In this document: one piece after another, positions 15,452 through 47,424 of the stretch
Layout of the letters: every line of letters starts with the position of its first letter
Numbering within the stretch: the stretch's first letter is position 1
Assembly (NCBI GenBank): GCA_016699465.1
Contig: CP064977.1
Coordinates: 619,739 to 683,738, forward strand
From: Candidatus Campbellbacteria bacterium
GTDB lineage: Bacteria; Patescibacteriota; Minisyncoccia; Phycocordibacterales; EsbW-18
DNA: 64,000 nt
Reading direction: 5' to 3'
Position numbers and translations under genes: made by a program
The notes under the pieces: generated by a model
What the model was told of the DNA's origin: nothing
Databases searched by the model: none
What the model saw: only the letters and a program-made list of their open reading frames with translations

Positions 15452-15865
15452 GTGCCTTTACGACATCAAAAAATTTTCCTCTTTACTCTATTGTTCCTTG
15501 CAGTAGCTGTGTATTTTCTTAATGAAACAGGACAAGTGCACTTTTTTTACTGGAAGTACTGGTGGTATGACATCATGATGCATTTTCTCGGTGGTTTTGT
15601 TGTATCTGGATTTGGATCGTGGGTATATATTTGTCCTACCTCATCAAATAGTATGACTCTTCGACGTACACTCGCACTCTCTGTTGGTATTGGTATGAGT
15701 ATTGGTATCGGCTGGGAGTTGTTTGAATATTTCAACGGTATATATGCCGATCAACCCGGCATCGTTGCTGACACGGCAGGAGATTTGTTCATGGATTGTA
15801 TCGGCTCAATTGTTTCAGGGCTTGTGGTGTACTGTACATTTATACGACTACGTTGCATAGAATAA
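15452..15865 (+). CDS. hypothetical membrane protein
   Basis: 137 aa with 3-4 hydrophobic helices, W/Y-rich; no recognised family. Confidence 0.45.
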   Translation: MPLRHQKIFLFTLLFLAVAVYFLNETGQVHFFYWKYWWYDIMMHFLGGFVVSGFGSWVYICPTSSNSMTLRRTLALSVGIGMSIGIGWELFEYFNGIYADQPGIVADTAGDLFMDCIGSIVSGLVVYCTFIRLRCIE

Positions 15866-15867
15866 CT

Positions 15868-17262
15868 ATGTCAGACACTATGAATACACACACAGAGAAG
15901 GGGCATGTAACACTTGGATTTTATGGTGGCGTTGGTACCGTAACTGGTGCGAATTTCCTTTTAAGTACTCCGGAAGGAAACGTTATTGTTGATTGTGGTA
16001 TGTTTCAGGGTATGCGTATGTGCAATCCAAATAATGCAAATATGTTTGGATATGATCTCTCGACACTCGATGCCCTCATTGTGACACACGCACATATTGA
16101 TCATATTGGACGTATTCCAAAATTAGTGAAGGATGGATTCCGTGGCCCTATTTACTCAACTATCGAAACACGGGAGCTTGCCGAAGTAATGCTTCCTGAC
16201 GCTGCTGGTCTCATTGTGAAAGAGGCGATTTTGTGCGGAGAAGAACCTTCATATACTGCCGAAGATGTTGCGCCAGTGTTTCTTCAGTGGAAAACGGTTC
16301 CGTACTATACGCCGTTTACCATTGCTGATATGACGTTTGAATTTAAAAATGCAGGCCACATTCTTGGTTCGGCGCTTGTGCAATGTATCCACCCGTCCGT
16401 TGGAAAGATTATATTTACAGGTGATTTGGGTAACTCGCCGTCGCTCATTATGAAAGACACGGATGTTATTGAGGATGCAAATATTTTAGTAATGGAGAGC
16501 GTGTATGGGGATCGTGTGCACGAAGAGGTGCCTGACCGTCTCGCACAATTAGAAGACGTTATTGAAAACACCATTAAAAACAAAGGTACACTTCTTATTC
16601 CAACATTTTCGATTGAACGCACACAAAATATTCTGTATGAAGTAAATATGCTCATTGAAGAAGCACGTATTCCACACATTGATGTGTATCTTGATTCGCC
16701 ACTGGCGACAGCGGTAACTGAAGTGTACAAACGTCATCCAGATAACTTTAACGAAAAAACACAACAAGCGATTGCGGCGGGGGATGATGTGTTTGCGTTC
16801 AAAGGATTGAGGGTGGTGAGCTCTACACAAGAGTCAAAGGCGATTTATGAAACTCCGGGGCCAAAAATTATTATTGCTGGTTCAGGTATGTCACACGGAG
16901 GACGCATTATCGGGCACGAAAAGCATTACCTCTCAGATCCGTTGTGTACGTTGTTGATTGTTGGATATCAAACGCCGGGAAGTTTGGGGCGACAGCTCGC
17001 CGATGGTGCAAAGAAAGTTACGATCGGAAAAGAAGAAATTGATATTCACGCCACGGTGCGCTCAGTATCAGGGTATTCAGGTCACCGTGATATGAATGGC
17101 CTCATCCGTTTTGTGAATGCGACAAGTTTAACCCTACGAAAAGTGTTTGTAACAATGGGCGAGCCAAAGACATCTCAATTTTTTGCACAACGACTTCGTG
17201 ACTACCTTGGTGTGAATGCTGTCTATCCAAATCTCCATGATGTGGTGGATATCTCAAAGTAG
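15868..17262 (+). CDS. MBL-fold beta-CASP family hydrolase (RNA-metabolising metallo-beta-lactamase-like)
   Basis: HAHIDHIGRIPKL motif (HxHxDH), GDLGNSP and later Asp/His motifs, C-terminal beta-CASP-like region; start at ATG 15868. Confidence 0.7.
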   Translation: MSDTMNTHTEKGHVTLGFYGGVGTVTGANFLLSTPEGNVIVDCGMFQGMRMCNPNNANMFGYDLSTLDALIVTHAHIDHIGRIPKLVKDGFRGPIYSTIETRELAEVMLPDAAGLIVKEAILCGEEPSYTAEDVAPVFLQWKTVPYYTPFTIADMTFEFKNAGHILGSALVQCIHPSVGKIIFTGDLGNSPSLIMKDTDVIEDANILVMESVYGDRVHEEVPDRLAQLEDVIENTIKNKGTLLIPTFSIERTQNILYEVNMLIEEARIPHIDVYLDSPLATAVTEVYKRHPDNFNEKTQQAIAAGDDVFAFKGLRVVSSTQESKAIYETPGPKIIIAGSGMSHGGRIIGHEKHYLSDPLCTLLIVGYQTPGSLGRQLADGAKKVTIGKEEIDIHATVRSVSGYSGHRDMNGLIRFVNATSLTLRKVFVTMGEPKTSQFFAQRLRDYLGVNAVYPNLHDVVDISK

Positions 17263-31065: not shown

Positions 31066-31467
31066 GGGGATGCCTCGTTTCGACAATGTGACAATTGTTA
31101 TACGTGCGTGGTGGAAGTGTGCTGACTTCCTTAAAACAGTACAAACATACCTGCAAAATCTGCAGTCAAAAGTCCATACTTCACAGTATCGGATTTCGCT
31201 TACGCTCTTGCATAAAGATTCTTGTCCTTCGGGACAAGTTGCCTAAGCGACGTCTTCTGACATCTTCGTTCGAGAGGTGTTAGCGGGTGTAAACCAATTC
31301 GAACTAGCGTACTCGGATGTTCCGACGAATACGTAACACTAATCGGTTCTGGCACGCTATCGTTTCGCCTGTCTTTAAGATAGTGTGTAAGACCTCAAGA
31401 CAACGCTAGATTACGTAGACTCGTATGGCATTACATATTGGACGTGGGGTCAAACCCACCATCTCCA
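31066..31467 (+). ncRNA. ssrA: tmRNA (ssrA), one-piece
   Basis: 5' GGGGAUGCCUCGUUUCGAC pairs with 3' ...GUGGGGUCAAACCCAC CAUCUCC A. Internal tag reading frame ends gct tac gct ctt gca taa (..AYALA*), as tmRNA tags do. Confidence 0.75.
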
Positions 31468-31799
31468 CATTTCAAAAATCAGCTCCGCATGTCGGAGCGA
31501 TTTTTGTTATGTGGAGATGAACACAACACCTGCGTGTTGTGTGGGCGGGTTTGAGCGGTCGGAGCGATGTGCCAAGGGCACACGCGAGACGAGCCTACGA
31601 GCACTTAGGATTTTGGAGCACAGAGTGCGAACAAAATACTTAGTGACTTGGAGGTCATCGCCACCATCTCCACAAAATTAATGAGTCGTAGACGAATATA
31701 ATTTTGTAGGCTCCCGATTTTTCTGTCGAGTACGACATTTAAAATCGCAGTCCCATTTCGGGGATGCCGCACATTGTGCGGCGCCACATCATTATTTTA

Positions 31800-35932: not shown

Positions 35933-36316
35933 ATGGCTGATTCAAAAAAACGTATCCTTATTATTGAAGATGAAATGCCATTGCGGGGCGCACTTCGTGA
36001 GTTTTTAATACGTGAAGGATTTGCTGTTCTTGAAGCCGAAAATGGTGAGAAAGGTTTAGAGATTGCAACACGCGAACATCCAGACCTCATCTTGCTTGAT
36101 ATTGTTATGCCTCACATGGACGGTATGACCATGCTTTCGTTCTTGCGAAAGGACGCGTGGGGAAAAACAGTGCCTGTTATTATTTTGACAAACCTTTCAA
36201 CAACAGACGAAAAACGAAACAGCGACATTACCGAATTGTTGCCGTCATTTTATTTGATAAAAAGTGATTGGAAATTGGAAGATCTCCTCGAAAAAATACA
36301 GGAGTGTCTCGTTTAG
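35933..36316 (+). CDS. response regulator, stand-alone receiver (CheY-like)
   Basis: KRILIIEDEMPLRGAL...PDLILLDIVMPHMDGMTML...PVIILTN; no output domain. Confidence 0.75.
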   Translation: MADSKKRILIIEDEMPLRGALREFLIREGFAVLEAENGEKGLEIATREHPDLILLDIVMPHMDGMTMLSFLRKDAWGKTVPVIILTNLSTTDEKRNSDITELLPSFYLIKSDWKLEDLLEKIQECLV

Positions 36317-37494
36317 TTTTTTTCTTGCGTGAGTATTTTGTTGAGTGTAAGTAGTGATGAAATATTGTGTTGCACGTAATCAATGCGAATTGAGTAGTTC
36401 TCTAAACTTTCGTGAAATCCTCCAACTCCATCAAGGTTTCCGTGTATGTCGCGTAATTGCTGTGCGGTAAATTGTGTTTGTAGTTGAAACGCGATAGCGC
36501 GCTTCATTGTGTTGAGTGCTTTTGATGCGTAGAGTGTATCTCCTGTTTTTGTAAAAAGAGTATATGCAGCGCCGAGGCCCTCGCTTCGTGTTGCTGTTGG
36601 TGTCGAGCGTGGTGGGTCATAAAAACCACCATTCCATTGTGTCCGTGCACCGGTTTCGTTGATGTGTTGTGCCGAGATAATAGAATCAACAATACGTTGT
36701 GTATGTGTGTAGTAGAGTTCGTCTGGACGGTTTGAATAGAGTTCATTGAGTGCGTAGAGAAGCCAGTGATCATGATTGAGATTTGTGGTTGTAACATTCG
36801 CGTCGCGGGCTTCAATGAGCCAGTGTGCTCCTCTGTGTGCTGCGTCAATCCACTGTATATTTTTATCAAGTGCGTAAAGTCGTGTAAGGGCAAAAATAGA
36901 TTCTCCAGGATAATAGTCTGATTCAAATGTAGTTTGGTCACCTGTGTCTGTTGCAACTTTGTGAACAGTAAATTCTCCGTTGGGTGCTTGTACTGCTGTG
37001 ATGAAATGTGCAAGTTTTTGTGCAAGGGTGAGATAGGGGTGCGTGCCGATGACAGGTGTTGTGAGAGAGACGTATTTTGAAAAGGCGAGTACGGCGAGTG
37101 CATTCCCACCAAGTTTTGTTTCGCTGTTTTCTTCAATACAGAGTGCGTTGGGTATGTTTGGACACGGAACTGCAGAGCGCGCGAGGTACTCGAGGGCGTG
37201 CTCTGCTACGGTGAGATATGTTTGTTCGCCCGTTGCTTCATAGAGCTCAAGAAGTGCGTAGGTTGTTCCCGCGTGGCGAACGATATTGTATGCATATGAT
37301 TCTTCGTTCGTAACAGGATTATACTCATATACAAAAGAGCCATCAGCATTTGCGTTGGTAACAAGGTAGTTGCCACCGAGACGCGCAGAGTCAAGGTATA
37401 CACTCTCGCGTGTGAAATATGAAAAAAGACCAATCCCGAGTAGTAGGGTGCCACCAACAATCATCATGTACAGTCCCTTTCTTTTTTCTTTCAT
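36313..37494 (-). CDS. hypothetical membrane-anchored protein, possibly alpha/alpha-barrel fold
   Basis: N-terminal signal-anchor helix; 393 aa rich in aromatic and Asn residues. Fold guess only. Confidence 0.4.
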   Translation of the reverse strand: MKEKRKGLYMMIVGGTLLLGIGLFSYFTRESVYLDSARLGGNYLVTNANADGSFVYEYNPVTNEESYAYNIVRHAGTTYALLELYEATGEQTYLTVAEHALEYLARSAVPCPNIPNALCIEENSETKLGGNALAVLAFSKYVSLTTPVIGTHPYLTLAQKLAHFITAVQAPNGEFTVHKVATDTGDQTTFESDYYPGESIFALTRLYALDKNIQWIDAAHRGAHWLIEARDANVTTTNLNHDHWLLYALNELYSNRPDELYYTHTQRIVDSIISAQHINETGARTQWNGGFYDPPRSTPTATRSEGLGAAYTLFTKTGDTLYASKALNTMKRAIAFQLQTQFTAQQLRDIHGNLDGVGGFHESLENYSIRIDYVQHNISSLLTLNKILTQEKN

Positions 37495-37500
37495 AACGCT

Positions 37501-37537
37501 GTCCGTCCCTATGGATTCGAACCATGAACCGCCGAGG
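37501..37537 (-). repeat. diverged partial copy of tRNA 3' half (T-arm plus acceptor)
   Basis: gtccgtccctatggattcgaaccatgaaccgccgagg resembles the 3' half of the intact tRNA 40 nt away; the 5' portion is unrelated. Confidence 0.6.
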
Positions 37538-37580
37538 ATATCTTTGATATGAAACTTCGTTCGGACTATGCAAATCTGTG

Positions 37581-37654
37581 TCCGCCCCCATGGACTCGAA
37601 CCATGAACCGCCGAGGTATAAGCTCGGTGCTCTAACCAATTGAGCTAGGGGCGG
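37581..37654 (-). tRNA. tRNA with anticodon UAU (Ile, AUA-decoding)
   Basis: Minus-strand cloverleaf: acceptor CCGCCCC/GGGGCGG, D arm GCTC-AATTGGTTA-GAGC, anticodon arm CCGAG-CTTATAC-CTCGG, T arm CATGG-TTCGAGT-CCATG. Anticodon TAT read by eye; C1-G72 start unusual. Confidence 0.7.
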
Positions 37655-37758
37655 ACACAAATTTTCAAAAATCCTCACTCGTTTCCATATCTACGATACA
37701 CCAGGTTCACTCGCTCGGAGAAGAAAACAAGTTCTCTTCTCCTCACTCGTTGCCTGCC

Positions 37759-37796
37759 GTAAGCTCGGTGCTCTAACCAATTGAGCTAGGGGCGGG
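37759..37796 (-). repeat. partial copy of tRNA 5' half (acceptor through anticodon stem)
   Basis: gtaagctcggtgctctaaccaattgagctaggggcgg is identical to the 5' half of the intact tRNA at 37617-37654; no 3' half follows. Confidence 0.7.
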
Positions 37797-37938
37797 CAAC
37801 AGTAGCTATTGTGATATCTGAAGTGCTTGAATGCAACTGTTTAATAACCACGTGGTCAAACGTTGTACGCTATAAAAGACGGTCGTCTTCTATGGCGTAC
37901 ATGTCTTTGCCTAGCAGTTTAGCTGTAACTTTACTACA

Positions 37939-38499
37939 ATGGGAGCACATTCATCTATGGGAGCACCACTCACAGGGTACAACAGTCTTGCTGACGCACT
38001 GGCGAAAGCACAATTAGGACACGAAATTGCGTTTCGTGCGATTTATGAACATCTTGTAGATCGCATATTTTCTTTCGTCCGTCCTCGAGCTCGTTCACGT
38101 GATGAAGCAACAGACATTGTACAAGATATTTTTGTGGATGTGTGGGGGGCGATGCCGCGTTTTACGTATATATCGGATGCGCACTTCTACAGTTTTGTGT
38201 TTACGATTGCGAAACGTCGTCTCATTCGTCACTACAAAACACACACTCACGAGTCATTGGATGATTTTGAACAGTATGAGCTCCCGCGTATTGAGGCAGA
38301 TATTGTTGATCCGGATGGTATGCAAAAGCTCGTTAATCAGTTATCAGAAAAATATCGCGAAGTGGTTACGCTTCGATATTTTTCTGGGCTATCATTTGCT
38401 GAAATTGGTGACCTGTTGGGGACCACAGAAACAAACGCTAAGGTTCGCCATCACCGAGCACTTAAAGAGCTTCGAGAGTTAATGCAAAAATATGAATAA
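37939..38499 (+). CDS. ECF-type RNA polymerase sigma factor
   Basis: Region 2 (DIVQDIFVDVWGAMPRF) and region 4 (LSFAEIGDLLGTTETNAKVRHHRALKELR). Confidence 0.8.
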   Translation: MGAHSSMGAPLTGYNSLADALAKAQLGHEIAFRAIYEHLVDRIFSFVRPRARSRDEATDIVQDIFVDVWGAMPRFTYISDAHFYSFVFTIAKRRLIRHYKTHTHESLDDFEQYELPRIEADIVDPDGMQKLVNQLSEKYREVVTLRYFSGLSFAEIGDLLGTTETNAKVRHHRALKELRELMQKYE

Positions 38500-44549: not shown

Positions 44550-46135
<1,586 letters not shown>

Positions 46136-46311
46136 AGTCAAATGACAATCGTTGAACATCGAAATTTTTTCATGTTTGATCTAGGCGGTCGATATCATGT
46201 ACCTCAATTGAGTACGTGATGGATAGTAACTGGACATCTTTAAGTCAGTTGGACACCAGGGAAAGACCGGTTGAGCAGAACAAAAGAAAGACTGTGATTT
46301 TAAAAAAATAG

Positions 46312-46967: not shown

Positions 46968-47114
46968 GTACGCGCCCTTCGGGGAAAGGCGGCTGTTTTT
47001 TTATCTAGTATTTAACTTAAGTGCTGGATTTATACAAAGTGGAAATTGTGGGTTGGAGGTGGGAAGTGGCAAATTGGAAATTTATTAGATTGGGATTATT
47101 TTGATACACCACAT

Positions 47115-47142
47115 CAACTGTACCGATATATCGGTACAGTTG
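47115..47142. repeat. perfect palindrome caacTGTACCGATATATCGGTACAgttg (copy 2 of 3)
   Basis: 28-bp perfect palindrome; same 20-bp core as 10380-10399 with different, still palindromic flanks. Confidence 0.85.
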
Positions 47143-47348
47143 AGAAATTTGGTGCGCGTTAGGGTGGGCGGCCACAGATATTTTTCTGCTGAAAAATTTT
47201 ACGAAGCCTCCTTCGGCACGATCTTCTGATCGCTCGTCTCAATGAGTACATTGACCTACTGGGTCATACCGTCGCGTTCCGACCTTCGACCTCTGTCGAC
47301 ACGGTAAAACAAAATCGCCGAAAGCTTTCGCCCTCGGCTCATTTGTTT

Positions 47349-47424
47349 TGGTGCGCGCGCTAGGGATCGAACCTAGGACCTTTCGAGTATCAGTCGAATG
47401 CTCTACCAGCTGAGCTACGCGCGC
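47349..47424 (-). tRNA. tRNA-Ile (anticodon GAU), CCA encoded
   Basis: Minus strand GCGCGCG TA GCTC AGCTGGTA GAGC A TTCGA CTGATAC TCGAA AGGTC CTAGG TTCGATC CCTAG CGCGCGC A CCA. Confidence 0.85.

Follow-up and report, generated by a model that had tools for sequence, protein, structure and literature searches.

A tRNA-Ile(UAU) gene probably nested in the anticodon loop of an older tRNA-Ile(UAU) gene of a Candidatus Campbellbacteria bacterium

Results

In this study, we found that a tRNA-Ile(UAU) locus in a 64,000-nt stretch of an 811-kb contig of a Candidatus Campbellbacteria bacterium (hereafter, the window) is probably a nested one. In the reading that we favor with reasonable, though not full, confidence, an older tRNA-Ile(UAU) gene was interrupted by two inserted units, E1 and E2, and persists as relic halves on both sides of them, and E2 is a recurring cassette without a promoter that carries the working inner gene. 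All features of the locus described here lie on the minus strand.

The inner gene was called by ARAGORN as tRNA-Ile(tat) at 37580–37654, and the Rfam tRNA model matched 37581–37654 with 66.6 bits (E = 2.1e-14). Every stem is perfect in the model alignment, and the CCA is not encoded. A preliminary description of the window had placed this intact tRNA correctly, and the inner copy appears to be the working gene of the locus. The same description had reported an exact copy of the 5' half and a diverged copy of the 3' half, and the repeat search confirmed both. The 5' half (37760–37795, 36 nt over tRNA positions 1–35) is identical to the inner tRNA at 36/36 nt, within a longer repeat that matches at 38 of 39 positions (37760–37798 against 37619–37657). 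The 3' half (37502–37537, positions 38–73) belongs to a repeat of 37500–37537 and 37579–37616 with 35/38 identical positions, and its three differences are all G to A on the tRNA strand. Repeats of 36–38 nt within 64 kb are far beyond chance, and no half copies were found around the other tRNAs of the window.

Each half copy breaks off within the anticodon loop: CTTA (position 35) is the last part of the 5' copy, and the 3' copy starts at C38. The two are best read as both ends of one older resident tRNA-Ile(UAU) gene that would have been split between anticodon-loop positions 35 and 36 (CTTA/TAC). The insert between them measures 222 nt, with the junctions CTTA/CGG... and ...GATAT/CC, and consists of E1 (72 nt) followed by E2, a 150-nt rod that is capped by the intact tRNA. 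The sequence joined to the 3' half had been regarded as unrelated, but the spacers turned out to be structured and conserved elements. Downstream lies a co-oriented gene (36313–37494) for a 393-aa membrane-anchored GH127-like protein (Pfam), which is a conserved neighbor of the tRNA.

E1 (37688–37759) is a hairpin rod without a tRNA, recognized from its predicted RNA fold and from a homologue in the related locus L145. It is composed of helix a, two tandem G.A motifs 2 bp apart, an 11-bp apical stem, and a terminal TATC-GTA-GATA mini-hairpin. The predicted fold has an energy of -30.7 kcal/mol (z = -3.85), and the L145 homologue folds to a matching shape. The two sequences are identical at 58 of 72 positions (81%), and the apical stem shows the double changes G-C to C-G and G-C to A-U. 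This conservation with compensatory changes is not accounted for by the view that the locus is purely a relic.

E2 surrounds the inner tRNA with two arms, which are supported by the inverted repeat I1, by covariation, and by the match to the covariance model R1 described below. The 5' arm (37655–37687) contains the helix a strand TGGAAAC, the GAGTGAGG motif, and the leader strand TTGAAAATTTGTGT, which prolongs the inner acceptor stem. The 3' arm (37538–37580) contains the trailer strand CACAGATTTGCA, the CCGAACGAA motif, the helix a' strand GTTTCA, and a terminal mini-hairpin, ATATC-AAA-GATAT, at 37538–37550. Leader and trailer are complementary, forming an inverted repeat of 37569–37588 with 37648–37667. 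In the window, 12 of 14 leader/trailer positions pair, compared with at most 9 in 43 plain genes; pairing at 11–13 of 14 was found only in cassette-type genes, and plain genes have TATAAT instead. Among the 35 pairs of the rod, 89% of cells are paired, compared with 29–45% in slid controls, and 27 pairs changed on both sides (0/500 shuffles). RNA folds of the rod gave z values of -7.3 and -7.4, and the minimum-energy fold of L130 recovers the cloverleaf in the anticodon loop. The covariation strongly indicates that the E2 arms pair as a helix of about 35 bp and that the rod is conserved as a structure. The 3' arm is homologous to those of L130, L132, L098, L123, L135, L145, and L004, and a blastn-short search found the E2 arms nowhere else in the 64-kb window.

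A purine-rich conserved strand, AACGAGTGAGG on the tRNA strand, is common to E1 and E2. It is the source of the 11-nt direct repeat cctcactcgtt of the preliminary description, which we found again inside a 15-nt repeat with one mismatch (37672–37686 and 37740–37754). The purine-rich loop seems to read better as tandem sheared G.A pairs between Watson-Crick pairs. A kink-turn was rejected, as no 3-nt bulge remains once the covarying pairs are formed, and so was a hammerhead-like reading, for which the junction would have to be three-way and is two-way.

The nested arrangement recurs in many Patescibacteria. In a survey of about 150 loci, nesting was found at no fewer than seven unrelated metagenome loci, with up to 3–4 layers, and in tRNA-Ile(UAU) only. 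The order of 5' half, arm, intact tRNA, arm, and 3' half was seen in differing gene neighborhoods in L130, L132, L098, L123, L129, L083/L096, L106/L128, and L004, and flanking halves broken in the anticodon loop, as in the window, in L130, L132, L098, L129, L145, and L083. L083 and L128 have 3–4 layers, of which ARAGORN reports the innermost gene only. The innermost gene is intact in every nested locus, and the outer copies are damaged. R1, a covariance model of the 5' arm, tRNA, and 3' arm from which the window was left out when it was built, matched the window at 37532–37694 over its full length (model positions 1–167; 150.4 bits, E = 1.2e-39). Plain tRNA-Ile(UAU) genes scored at most 91 bits, over positions 40–114 (the tRNA part) only, and the tRNA-Ile(GAU) of the window scored 62 bits. 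In L083, a tRNA-less unit in the place equivalent to E1 matched R1 over the arms only (40.4 bits). As judged by the full-length match and the flanking halves, the window locus can be assigned to a family of nested tRNA-Ile(UAU) cassettes. In a search of full-text literature, we came across no account of one tRNA gene lying within the anticodon loop of another.

The relatives share the gene order RecG – DUF5667 – ECF sigma – tRNA-Ile(UAU) – 393-aa gene – response regulator – FtsH. An uninterrupted tRNA-Ile(UAU) ends 0–25 nt before the orthologous gene in L002, L009, L133/L134, L136, L137, L146, and L148. In L145, of which the neighbor protein is 66% identical, the promoter, 5' half, E1, E2 with tRNA, 3' half, and gene are collinear with the window, and L135 (neighbor protein 70% identical) harbors a decayed version of the nested locus. 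The proposed comparison with related genomes yielded both empty and filled sites. A tRNA-Ile(UAU) had been called uncommon in bacteria, but this is not true of the present lineage: 52 metagenome loci contain an exact 29-mer of the window tRNA, and the gene is present in almost every relative. Of the Ile codons in 23 window ORFs, 14% are AUA. A 222-aa HTH ORF adjoins the tRNA in L133 and L006 and is absent from the window. We rejected it as a homing endonuclease, as only the HTH domain was detectable and there was no PDB match; PHROGs gave no match for the L133 ORF and generic HTH/DNA-binding families for its L006 homologue.

The outer copy shows features of a resident gene. The acceptor strand GGGACGG of the 3' half is the resident type of L001, L003, L137, and L152. 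The half lies 7 nt before the ATG at 37494, the place of the uninterrupted tRNAs in L002, L009, L133, L136, L137, and L146, and it has the trailer ACAGCGTT-ATG, as in L133. Among the other nested loci, the outer halves of L132 are 0 and 2 nt from the empty-site alleles of L081/L089 and 3 and 7 nt from its own inner tRNA; the outer 3' half of L145 is identical to the tRNA of L136, and the outer 5' half of L130 to L099/L118.

The outer copy is also damaged. The G to A changes of the 3' half lead to C49.A65 and C4.A69 mismatches, and the joined halves have a 6-nt anticodon loop and were called 'tRNA-??? (ta)' by ARAGORN, which argues against the split or permuted functional tRNA that had been considered. 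The 5' half of the window was probably homogenized by gene conversion from the inner copy, because its C4 does not pair with A69 of the 3' half, whereas relatives with the resident acceptor type have T4. In the other nested loci, L132 lost the invariant C56 (C56>T), the TAT anticodon is not recoverable in L098 and L129, additional hairpins are inserted in L123 and L004, and the outermost layers of L083 and L128 are truncated. L135 lost the outer 5' half and has its 3' half reduced to TCTCGG, and E2 is kept. The outer genes of L130, L145, and layer c of L083 are nearly intact, with clean junctions. In the window and in L145, the inner and outer tRNAs share one body type per genome; this type differs between the two genomes, and the arms are homologous. 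We explain this pattern by gene conversion, of which L130 and the window give direct hints; copying of the resident tRNA during insertion fits the pattern equally well.

Discussion

The preliminary description had offered tandem duplication followed by decay as one possibility. This is unfitting, as the halves appear to be the ends of one older gene around an insert; its other thought, that they might be parts of a second tRNA gene that had been mis-parsed, is essentially what we found. A related explanation is that template switching or unequal recombination at the palindromic pre-tRNA copied the halves in place, with no foreign cassette. Inner and outer copies hardly differ in the window, L004, and L083, the entire locus is a quasi-palindrome, and an existing nest could gain further layers when its repeated halves recombine out of register. 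We nevertheless judge local duplication improbable: the inner and outer copies of L132, L098, and L129 differ at ≥10 positions with compensated stems, the outer ones matching empty-site alleles, homologous arms occur in unrelated gene neighborhoods, and the breakpoints always lie in the anticodon loop. Identical arms of a first-layer cassette in distantly related hosts with differing resident tRNAs, which would speak further against this explanation, were already seen in part. It is a little less doubtful that the insert is a bacterial intron of a new kind, so that the junctions would be cut and the outer halves ligated, and each transcript would yield two tRNA-Ile(UAU) or the inner tRNA would be an intron-borne passenger. 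Position 35/36 is a known Patescibacteria tRNA intron site (PMC13011429), the junction-proximal helix a and the terminal C-GNA-G hairpin are conserved with covariation, and E1 is kept between the window and L145. When the insert is precisely taken out, the outer halves of L130 and of layer c of L083 give a normal tRNA-Ile(tat), and L145 has a clean junction and a nearly intact outer copy. However, the same removal in the window leaves a 6-nt loop and two stem mismatches, L132 is without C56, and L098 and L129 have no recoverable anticodon. L135 keeps the cassette though the outer gene is lost, outermost layers are truncated, and a rod-only interruption without an inner tRNA was seen at no locus. 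Neither an Rfam intron or ribozyme family at the locus nor, by inspection, a bulge-helix-bulge at the junctions was found. We hold a wider form of this idea to be equally unlikely, namely a new tRNA intron or processing module in which the outer halves would be cut and rejoined under the guidance of the rod with tandem G.A and of the C-GNA-G mini-hairpin, at least where the junctions are clean (L130, L145, L083), with at least two tRNAs per transcript and homing with exon co-conversion.

Partial tRNA copies are the usual footprint of island integration or excision, and anticodon-loop crossover sites are reportedly typical for one class of tyrosine integrases. The half copies had accordingly been taken as possible scars of integration or excision, and a site-specific event in a tRNA gene remains part of our reading. 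That they are attL/attR scars of an integrase-type island is very improbable, although partial copies are present and the break in the anticodon loop fits the said integrase class. The halves enclose 222 nt without an integrase gene, a full gene preceded by a 5' half and followed by a 3' half is not what a single crossover produces, and the identical layout occurs without any island in at least 10 loci. We attach almost no weight to an assembly artefact of a repeated tRNA. The source is a metagenome-assembled genome, a run of 100 Ns occupies precisely the space between the halves in L001, and the tRNA of L137 is cut by the contig end, but independent NCBI, ENA, and JGI assemblies show the architecture with differing sequences and compensatory changes.

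Nakagawa et al. (2026, PMC13011429) reported that group I introns occur in tRNA anticodon loops of Patescibacteria, including position 35/36. The nested locus resembles these introns in phylum, in the kind of host gene, in the anticodon-loop sub-site, and in its patchy spread among relatives. In contrast to them, the window insert has no group I core, is made of units of 72 and 150 nt, and carries a whole tRNA between decaying flanking 'exons'. Its 5' flank ends with A, not U, and the insert lacks a terminal G, so that the pairing of a 5' exon U with G and the intron-final G expected of a group I intron were not seen at the window junctions. An Rfam cmscan of 37400–37900 with E values up to 10 also gave only the tRNA and chance matches, and we rejected a group I intron, a ribozyme, or another known RNA family at this place.

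Integrative islands and prophages target tRNA genes and carry a tRNA segment that rebuilds the gene. The window element is like them in that a tRNA gene is disrupted at a defined sub-site, working-tRNA sequence is brought in, and displaced fragments remain. It differs in its total of 222 nt with no integrase or cargo, and in supplying a complete tRNA and displacing both halves of the target, which results in nesting rather than attL/attR. We found neither a recombinase adjacent to the tRNA nor direct repeats bracketing kilobases of foreign DNA. The intervening sequences of 23S and 16S rRNA are excised by RNase III without religation, and the fragmented rRNA still works. They are likewise helical rods with complementary ends in a hairpin loop of a structural RNA gene, sporadic among relatives, and the rod of the window is probably a substrate of a double-strand RNase too. 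However, a tRNA cut in its anticodon loop is nonfunctional, and the window rod bears a substitute gene.

Miniature inverted-repeat elements, for example, the Correia elements of Neisseria and the palindromic elements of Rickettsia, share with our insert a size of about 70–150 nt, ends that pair as a long hairpin, TA or TAT at both junctions, and the ability to sit inside genes. They are co-transcribed with the host gene, as the insert would be. The window insert differs in that it is not dispersed (there is no second copy in 64 kb), carries a gene, and has ends that are not simple inverted repeats, with conserved G.A mismatches and an extra 3' mini-hairpin. The ends of the insert are paired by helix a, and the right end has the extra mini-hairpin. 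L130, L083, and L145 have TA, TAT, or TATA at both junctions, to which duplication and microhomology both fit. Archaea and algae are known for disrupted tRNAs with bulge-helix-bulge introns and for split and permuted tRNAs. There, too, the halves are apart in the genome and complementary flanks form a helix, but here the host is a bacterium, the halves are in normal order and damaged, and a full tRNA lies between them. In the predicted folds, helix a has the 5' junction at its base, and the 3' junction adjoins a triloop hairpin; inspection showed no bulge-helix-bulge, for which two 3-nt bulges with a 4-bp helix between them are expected.

A promoter-like block, TTGCAT-17 nt-CACAAT, lies upstream of the outer 5' half (37808–37836). 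It is identical to L145 at 36/38 positions and also occurs upstream of the tRNA in L001, L003, L135, L136, L082, and L152, and it went uncalled in a simple sigma-70 scan. In plain tRNA-Ile(UAU) genes, TATAAT lies 6–10 nt upstream, and the inner window gene has none. This suggested that the block is probably the sole promoter of the unit. Under the nested reading, the promoter of the old gene would most likely drive one precursor comprising the dead 5' half, E1, arm, tRNA, arm, and dead 3' half. The arm duplex of about 35 bp may prevent the redundant halves from pairing wrongly with the inner cloverleaf, and it may be the entry point for a double-strand RNase, after which RNase P, 3' trimming, and CCA addition would complete the tRNA.

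We presume that promoter-less tRNA-Ile(UAU) cassettes repeatedly enter the anticodon loops of tRNA-Ile(UAU) genes, including the gene of an earlier cassette, and that gene conversion may then exchange sequence between the inner and outer copies. Among the 27 window ORFs scanned with Pfam and in the surroundings of six further nested loci, we saw no transposase, integrase, reverse transcriptase, or homing endonuclease, and the earlier statement that no integrase or island is adjacent was borne out; because of this, we infer the mobility of the cassette from its distribution only. The window neighbors of the tRNA encode the GH127-like protein, an ECF sigma factor, a DUF5667 protein, and a response regulator. 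A phage vehicle was also considered and rejected, as scans of viral contigs with the helix-b motif and a tRNA 27-mer gave chance matches or nothing. We see about an even chance that the locus represents a previously unrecognized selfish element, a self-nesting tRNA cassette that lacks a promoter and whose homing target is the anticodon loop of its own isoacceptor gene.

Conclusions

Since tRNA finders report only the innermost gene, relic halves of this kind are prone to be misread as integration scars or pseudogenes, and nested repeats may break short-read assemblies, as in L001 and L137. The conserved rod is a candidate substrate for studies of pre-tRNA processing in an uncultured phylum, and the loci with clean junctions bear on whether bacteria splice tRNA without group I introns. 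If the nested reading is true, Patescibacteria would host a tiny element that repeatedly overwrites an essential tRNA gene from within. It would be a minimal case of selfish gene replacement and an unrecognized way in which tRNA genes turn over and are exchanged horizontally among bacteria with very small genomes.

Structure of the locus and the same site in relatives

ARAGORN and Rfam agreed on one gene at this locus, an intact tRNA-Ile with the anticodon UAU on the minus strand (37581-37654), in which CCA is not encoded. The three repeats that the preliminary description had claimed around this tRNA were all recovered by a repeat search of the window. On the same strand, tRNA positions 1-35 recur unchanged at 37760-37795 (36/36), and positions 38-73 recur at 37502-37537 with three G>A substitutions; each of these partial copies breaks off within the anticodon loop. 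The third repeat, of 15 nt, is found in the spacers. The search also revealed that the leader of the intact tRNA is complementary to its trailer (37569-37588 / 37648-37667), adding 13 bp to the acceptor stem. A conserved promoter-like block, TTGCAT-17-CACAAT, is located at 37808-37836 on the minus strand. The evidence shows that a resident tRNA-Ile(UAU) gene was interrupted between CTTA and TAC by two units, E1, a 72-nt hairpin rod without a tRNA (37688-37759), and E2, a 150-nt rod with the inner tRNA at its tip (37538-37687), and that the inner gene is intact.

The protein of the adjoining 393-aa gene matches one from a Candidatus Campbellbacteria MAG, encoded on a contig of 811 kb, at 100% identity. 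In relatives, the order RecG, DUF5667, ECF sigma, tRNA-Ile(UAU), 393-aa gene, response regulator and FtsH is conserved. The tRNA is uninterrupted in L002, L009, L133/L134, L136, L137, L146 and L148, where 0-25 nt separate its end from the start codon of the 393-aa gene's orthologue. The 3' half of the window sits exactly where this uninterrupted tRNA does and is followed by ACAGCGTT-ATG, the same as in L133. With GGGACGG as acceptor strand, it is of the type found in L001, L003, L137 and L152 (CCGTCCC/GGGACGG) and differs from the intact tRNA (CCGCCCC/GGGGCGG). Since its position, trailer and acceptor strand match those of the relatives, the 3' half is, as judged by sequence comparison, the tail of the ancestral, resident gene.

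An independent ENA assembly (L145), whose adjoining protein is 66% identical to that of the window, is collinear with it through the promoter block, 5' half, 72-nt unit, 150-nt unit with an intact tRNA, 3' half and gene. Identity to the window was 95% for the promoter block, 81% for E1, 70% for the E2 arms and 65-78% for the tRNA parts. In a decayed version (L135, adjoining protein 70% identical), the inner tRNA survives together with its leader/trailer helix and the terminal hairpin; the outer 5' half is gone and the outer 3' half is reduced to TCTCGG.

Several further observations were made at this site. In L001, exactly 100 N (1605-1704) stand between ...GAGCTTA and CCTCGG... of a tRNA with perfectly pairing halves. 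L137 (1-60), which belongs to the same population and has one mismatch in 75 nt, is uninterrupted through GAGCTTATACCTCGG, and its contig stops inside the tRNA; the N run may reflect a gap in the scaffold, masking, or a polymorphism between filled and empty sites. In the window, the 10-nt direct repeat ATGGGAGCAC occurs in two copies 18 nt apart (37939-37966) where the ECF sigma gene starts, giving two in-frame ATG-Gly-Ser-Thr starts. A 222-aa ORF (L133 1022-1690, L134 236-904) separates the sigma gene from the tRNA-Ile(UAU) in the closest relative (74% identity). Its only recognisable domain is an N-terminal HTH_23, and at its 3' end it overlaps TATAAT-CCGCCTGTA, in which the downstream tRNA's first 9 nt are repeated. 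A homologue with 34% identity (L006 4885-5445) adjoins tRNA-Met and tRNA-Asp, and the ORF is absent from the window.

Nested tRNA genes at other loci

An exact 29-mer of the window tRNA matched 52 metagenome loci, most of them plain genes with TATAAT 6-10 nt upstream. L130, L132, L098, L123, L129, L083/L096 and L106/L128 consist of a 5' half, an arm, a complete tRNA-Ile(UAU), an arm and a 3' half, with the 5' halves cut after CTTA, and three to four nested layers were found in L083/L096 and L106/L128. L004 has the same layout but the other common tRNA-Ile(UAU) body type. At every nested locus ARAGORN calls the innermost gene only, and no rod-only interruption lacking an inner tRNA was seen among the loci examined. 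The genes flanking the nested loci vary (NUDIX, LTD/PKD, malic enzyme, cytidylate kinase), and those examined beside the nested metagenome loci included no mobility genes.

Sequence comparison further indicates that the outer halves are the resident gene and that the inner gene can be foreign. The outer halves of L132 are 0 and 2 nt from the empty-site alleles L081/L089 and 3 and 7 nt from their own inner tRNA. Likewise, the outer 3' half of L145 is identical to the L136 tRNA (2 nt from its inner tRNA), and the outer 5' half of L130 to L099/L118 (3 nt from its inner tRNA). The inner genes of L129 and L098 diverge from the outer ones in the acceptor, anticodon and T stems, the pairs being compensated on each side. 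The outer 3' half of L130 is of the inner type over positions 38-65 and of the resident type in its acceptor strand, and the outer 5' half of the window has the inner C4, mismatched with its own partner A69. These may be gene conversion or co-conversion tracts. Such conversion would account for the inner/outer body type shared within the window and within L145, though the arms are homologous between the two genomes.

The outer copies are relics, and the outer gene of the window is dead. With the insert removed exactly, its joined halves have mismatches at two stem positions and a loop of 6 nt, and ARAGORN reported 'tRNA-??? (ta)'. The outcome was the same for L132, which also lacks the invariant C56, and L098; the joined halves of L129 would read taa. 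In the outer copies of L123 and L004, the D or T loop is interrupted by additional hairpins, the outermost layers of L083 and L128 are truncated, and hardly any outer gene remains in L135. This test gave tRNA-Ile(tat) from L130 and L083 layer c only; L145 has a clean junction too, and none of the three is free of lesions.

Other small inserts lie within tRNA-Ile(UAU) sequences of L123 (about 2835-2855 and 2903-2970), L004 (4800-4845) and L152 (620-715). A D loop contains GC-rich palindromes (CCTGCCTGCCGGCAGGCAGG; CCTACAGGCAGGTAG), a T loop contains a hairpin of 40 nt, and other inserts, of 60-70 nt, are bordered by a repeated stretch of the tRNA's first 9-12 nt. These inserts suggest that the genomes harbour tRNA-targeted insertions of further kinds.

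Structure of the rod

Covariation was counted in an alignment of seven cassettes (5' arm, tRNA and 3' arm) against a structure that we specified, comprising helix a, two Watson-Crick pairs beside the tandem G.A, a 5-bp extension, and the 13-bp leader/trailer helix with the acceptor stem. Over the 35 pairs counted, 89% of cells were paired, compared with 29-45% with slid partners; both sides had changed at 27 pairs, and none of 500 shuffles equalled this. Helix a takes the forms TGGAAGG/CCTTCCA, TGAAAGG/CCTTTCA, TGGCGGC/GCCGCCA, TGATTGG/CCAATCA, TCAGTTC/GAACTGA and ATGAC/GTCAT according to locus. In the purine-rich strands (5'-A-R-Y-G-A-R / 5'-Y-G-A-R-Y-G-A-A), the G.A positions stay non-complementary while their neighbours covary, which argues for a folded single strand and not for simple inverted repeats. 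Each unit terminates in a mini-hairpin abutting the 3' flank, with C-GNA-G as closing pair and loop (GGA, GTA or GAA; AAA in E2 of the window) and a variable stem (TATC/GATA, ATATC/GATAT, GAC/GTC, AC/GT, ATATG/CATAT). E1 of the window and E1 of L145 were predicted to fold alike, each as a rod containing two tandem G.A motifs. Whole-unit folds gave z = -7.3 (window) and -7.4 (L130), and the minimum-energy structure of L130 is a cloverleaf at the tip of a rod rising from the anticodon loop of another cloverleaf.

A covariance model built from six cassettes, with the window left out, matched window 37532-37694 over its full length (positions 1-167; 150.4 bits, E = 1.2e-39). Two further untrained loci, L135 (122 bits, positions 1-167, full length) and L082 (123 bits, positions 14-142), were matched as well. 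About 60 plain tRNA-Ile(UAU) genes (91 bits or less) and the tRNA-Ile(GAU) of the window (62 bits) matched in the tRNA part only, and the tRNA-less unit of L083 in the arms only (40.4 bits). Leader/trailer pairing of 11-13/14 was found only in cassette-type genes, which have no TATAAT promoter.

Other features of the window

The 16S rRNA gene (44550-46143) has no 23S rRNA in the following 18 kb, and the nearest tRNA-Ile(GAU) is encoded on the opposite strand (47349-47424); the rRNA genes appear unlinked. Between the 16S region and this tRNA, a palindrome of 30 nt (TCAACTGTACCGATA/TATCGGTACAGTTGA) without mismatches occupies 47114-47143. A tmRNA gene (31066-31470; Rfam, 81 bits) was missed by ARAGORN. 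A 488-aa beta-CASP / metallo-beta-lactamase RNase (RNase J or CPSF-like; 15796-17262) is a candidate RNA-processing enzyme, though nothing connects it to the tRNA locus.

Discussion

An assembly artefact is excluded by the covariation across independent assemblies, and a purely local duplication is contradicted by L132, L098 and L129, whose inner genes are foreign. Scars of an integrase would fit neither the layout nor the gene content. That the insert is an intron seems improbable to us, though the clean junctions at three loci and the conservation of E1, for which a pure relic would not account, speak for it. Group I tRNA introns of Patescibacteria (PMC13011429) occupy the same site, but the window insert lacks any group I feature.

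Given the interruption of a resident gene by cassettes, the locus most likely works as follows. A single transcript would run from the TTGCAT-17-CACAAT block across the whole unit, perhaps into the 393-aa gene. The arm duplex may shield the inner cloverleaf from the redundant halves until a double-strand RNase opens it; RNase P, 3' trimming and CCA addition, needed as the inner tRNA encodes no CCA, would then complete the tRNA. Selection would retain the rod because the cell depends on the inner tRNA. AUA makes up 14% of the Ile codons in 23 ORFs of the window, and neither tilS nor tRNA-Ile(CAU) was seen within the 64-kb window. In L135, where the outer halves are lost, helix a and the G.A motif have decayed and the leader/trailer helix is retained, which fits the proposed role of the rod.

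In its behaviour the family resembles a target-specific insertion cassette. Orientation and sub-site are constant, TA, TAT or TATA is common to both junctions at the loci where these are clean, and a second unit may lie directly beside the first (window, L145, L083) or within its tRNA (L083). C-GNA-G mini-hairpins and tandem G.A pairs are stable in both single-stranded DNA and RNA, and for this reason a hairpin-recognising single-strand transposase acting in trans is one candidate mechanism of insertion; homing by break repair with co-conversion is another. No enzyme for insertion was found among the 27 window ORFs scanned or beside six other nested loci.

A similar logic is followed by islands that restore a disrupted tRNA gene, by intervening sequences of rRNA genes and by hairpin-forming MITEs. 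None of these is known to place a complete replacement gene in the loop of the gene it targets or to nest in itself, as the cassette does. Full-text literature searches returned no description of a tRNA gene nested in a tRNA in this way. There is a substantial chance that this locus, as a site-specific insert in a structural RNA gene, represents a new class of element.
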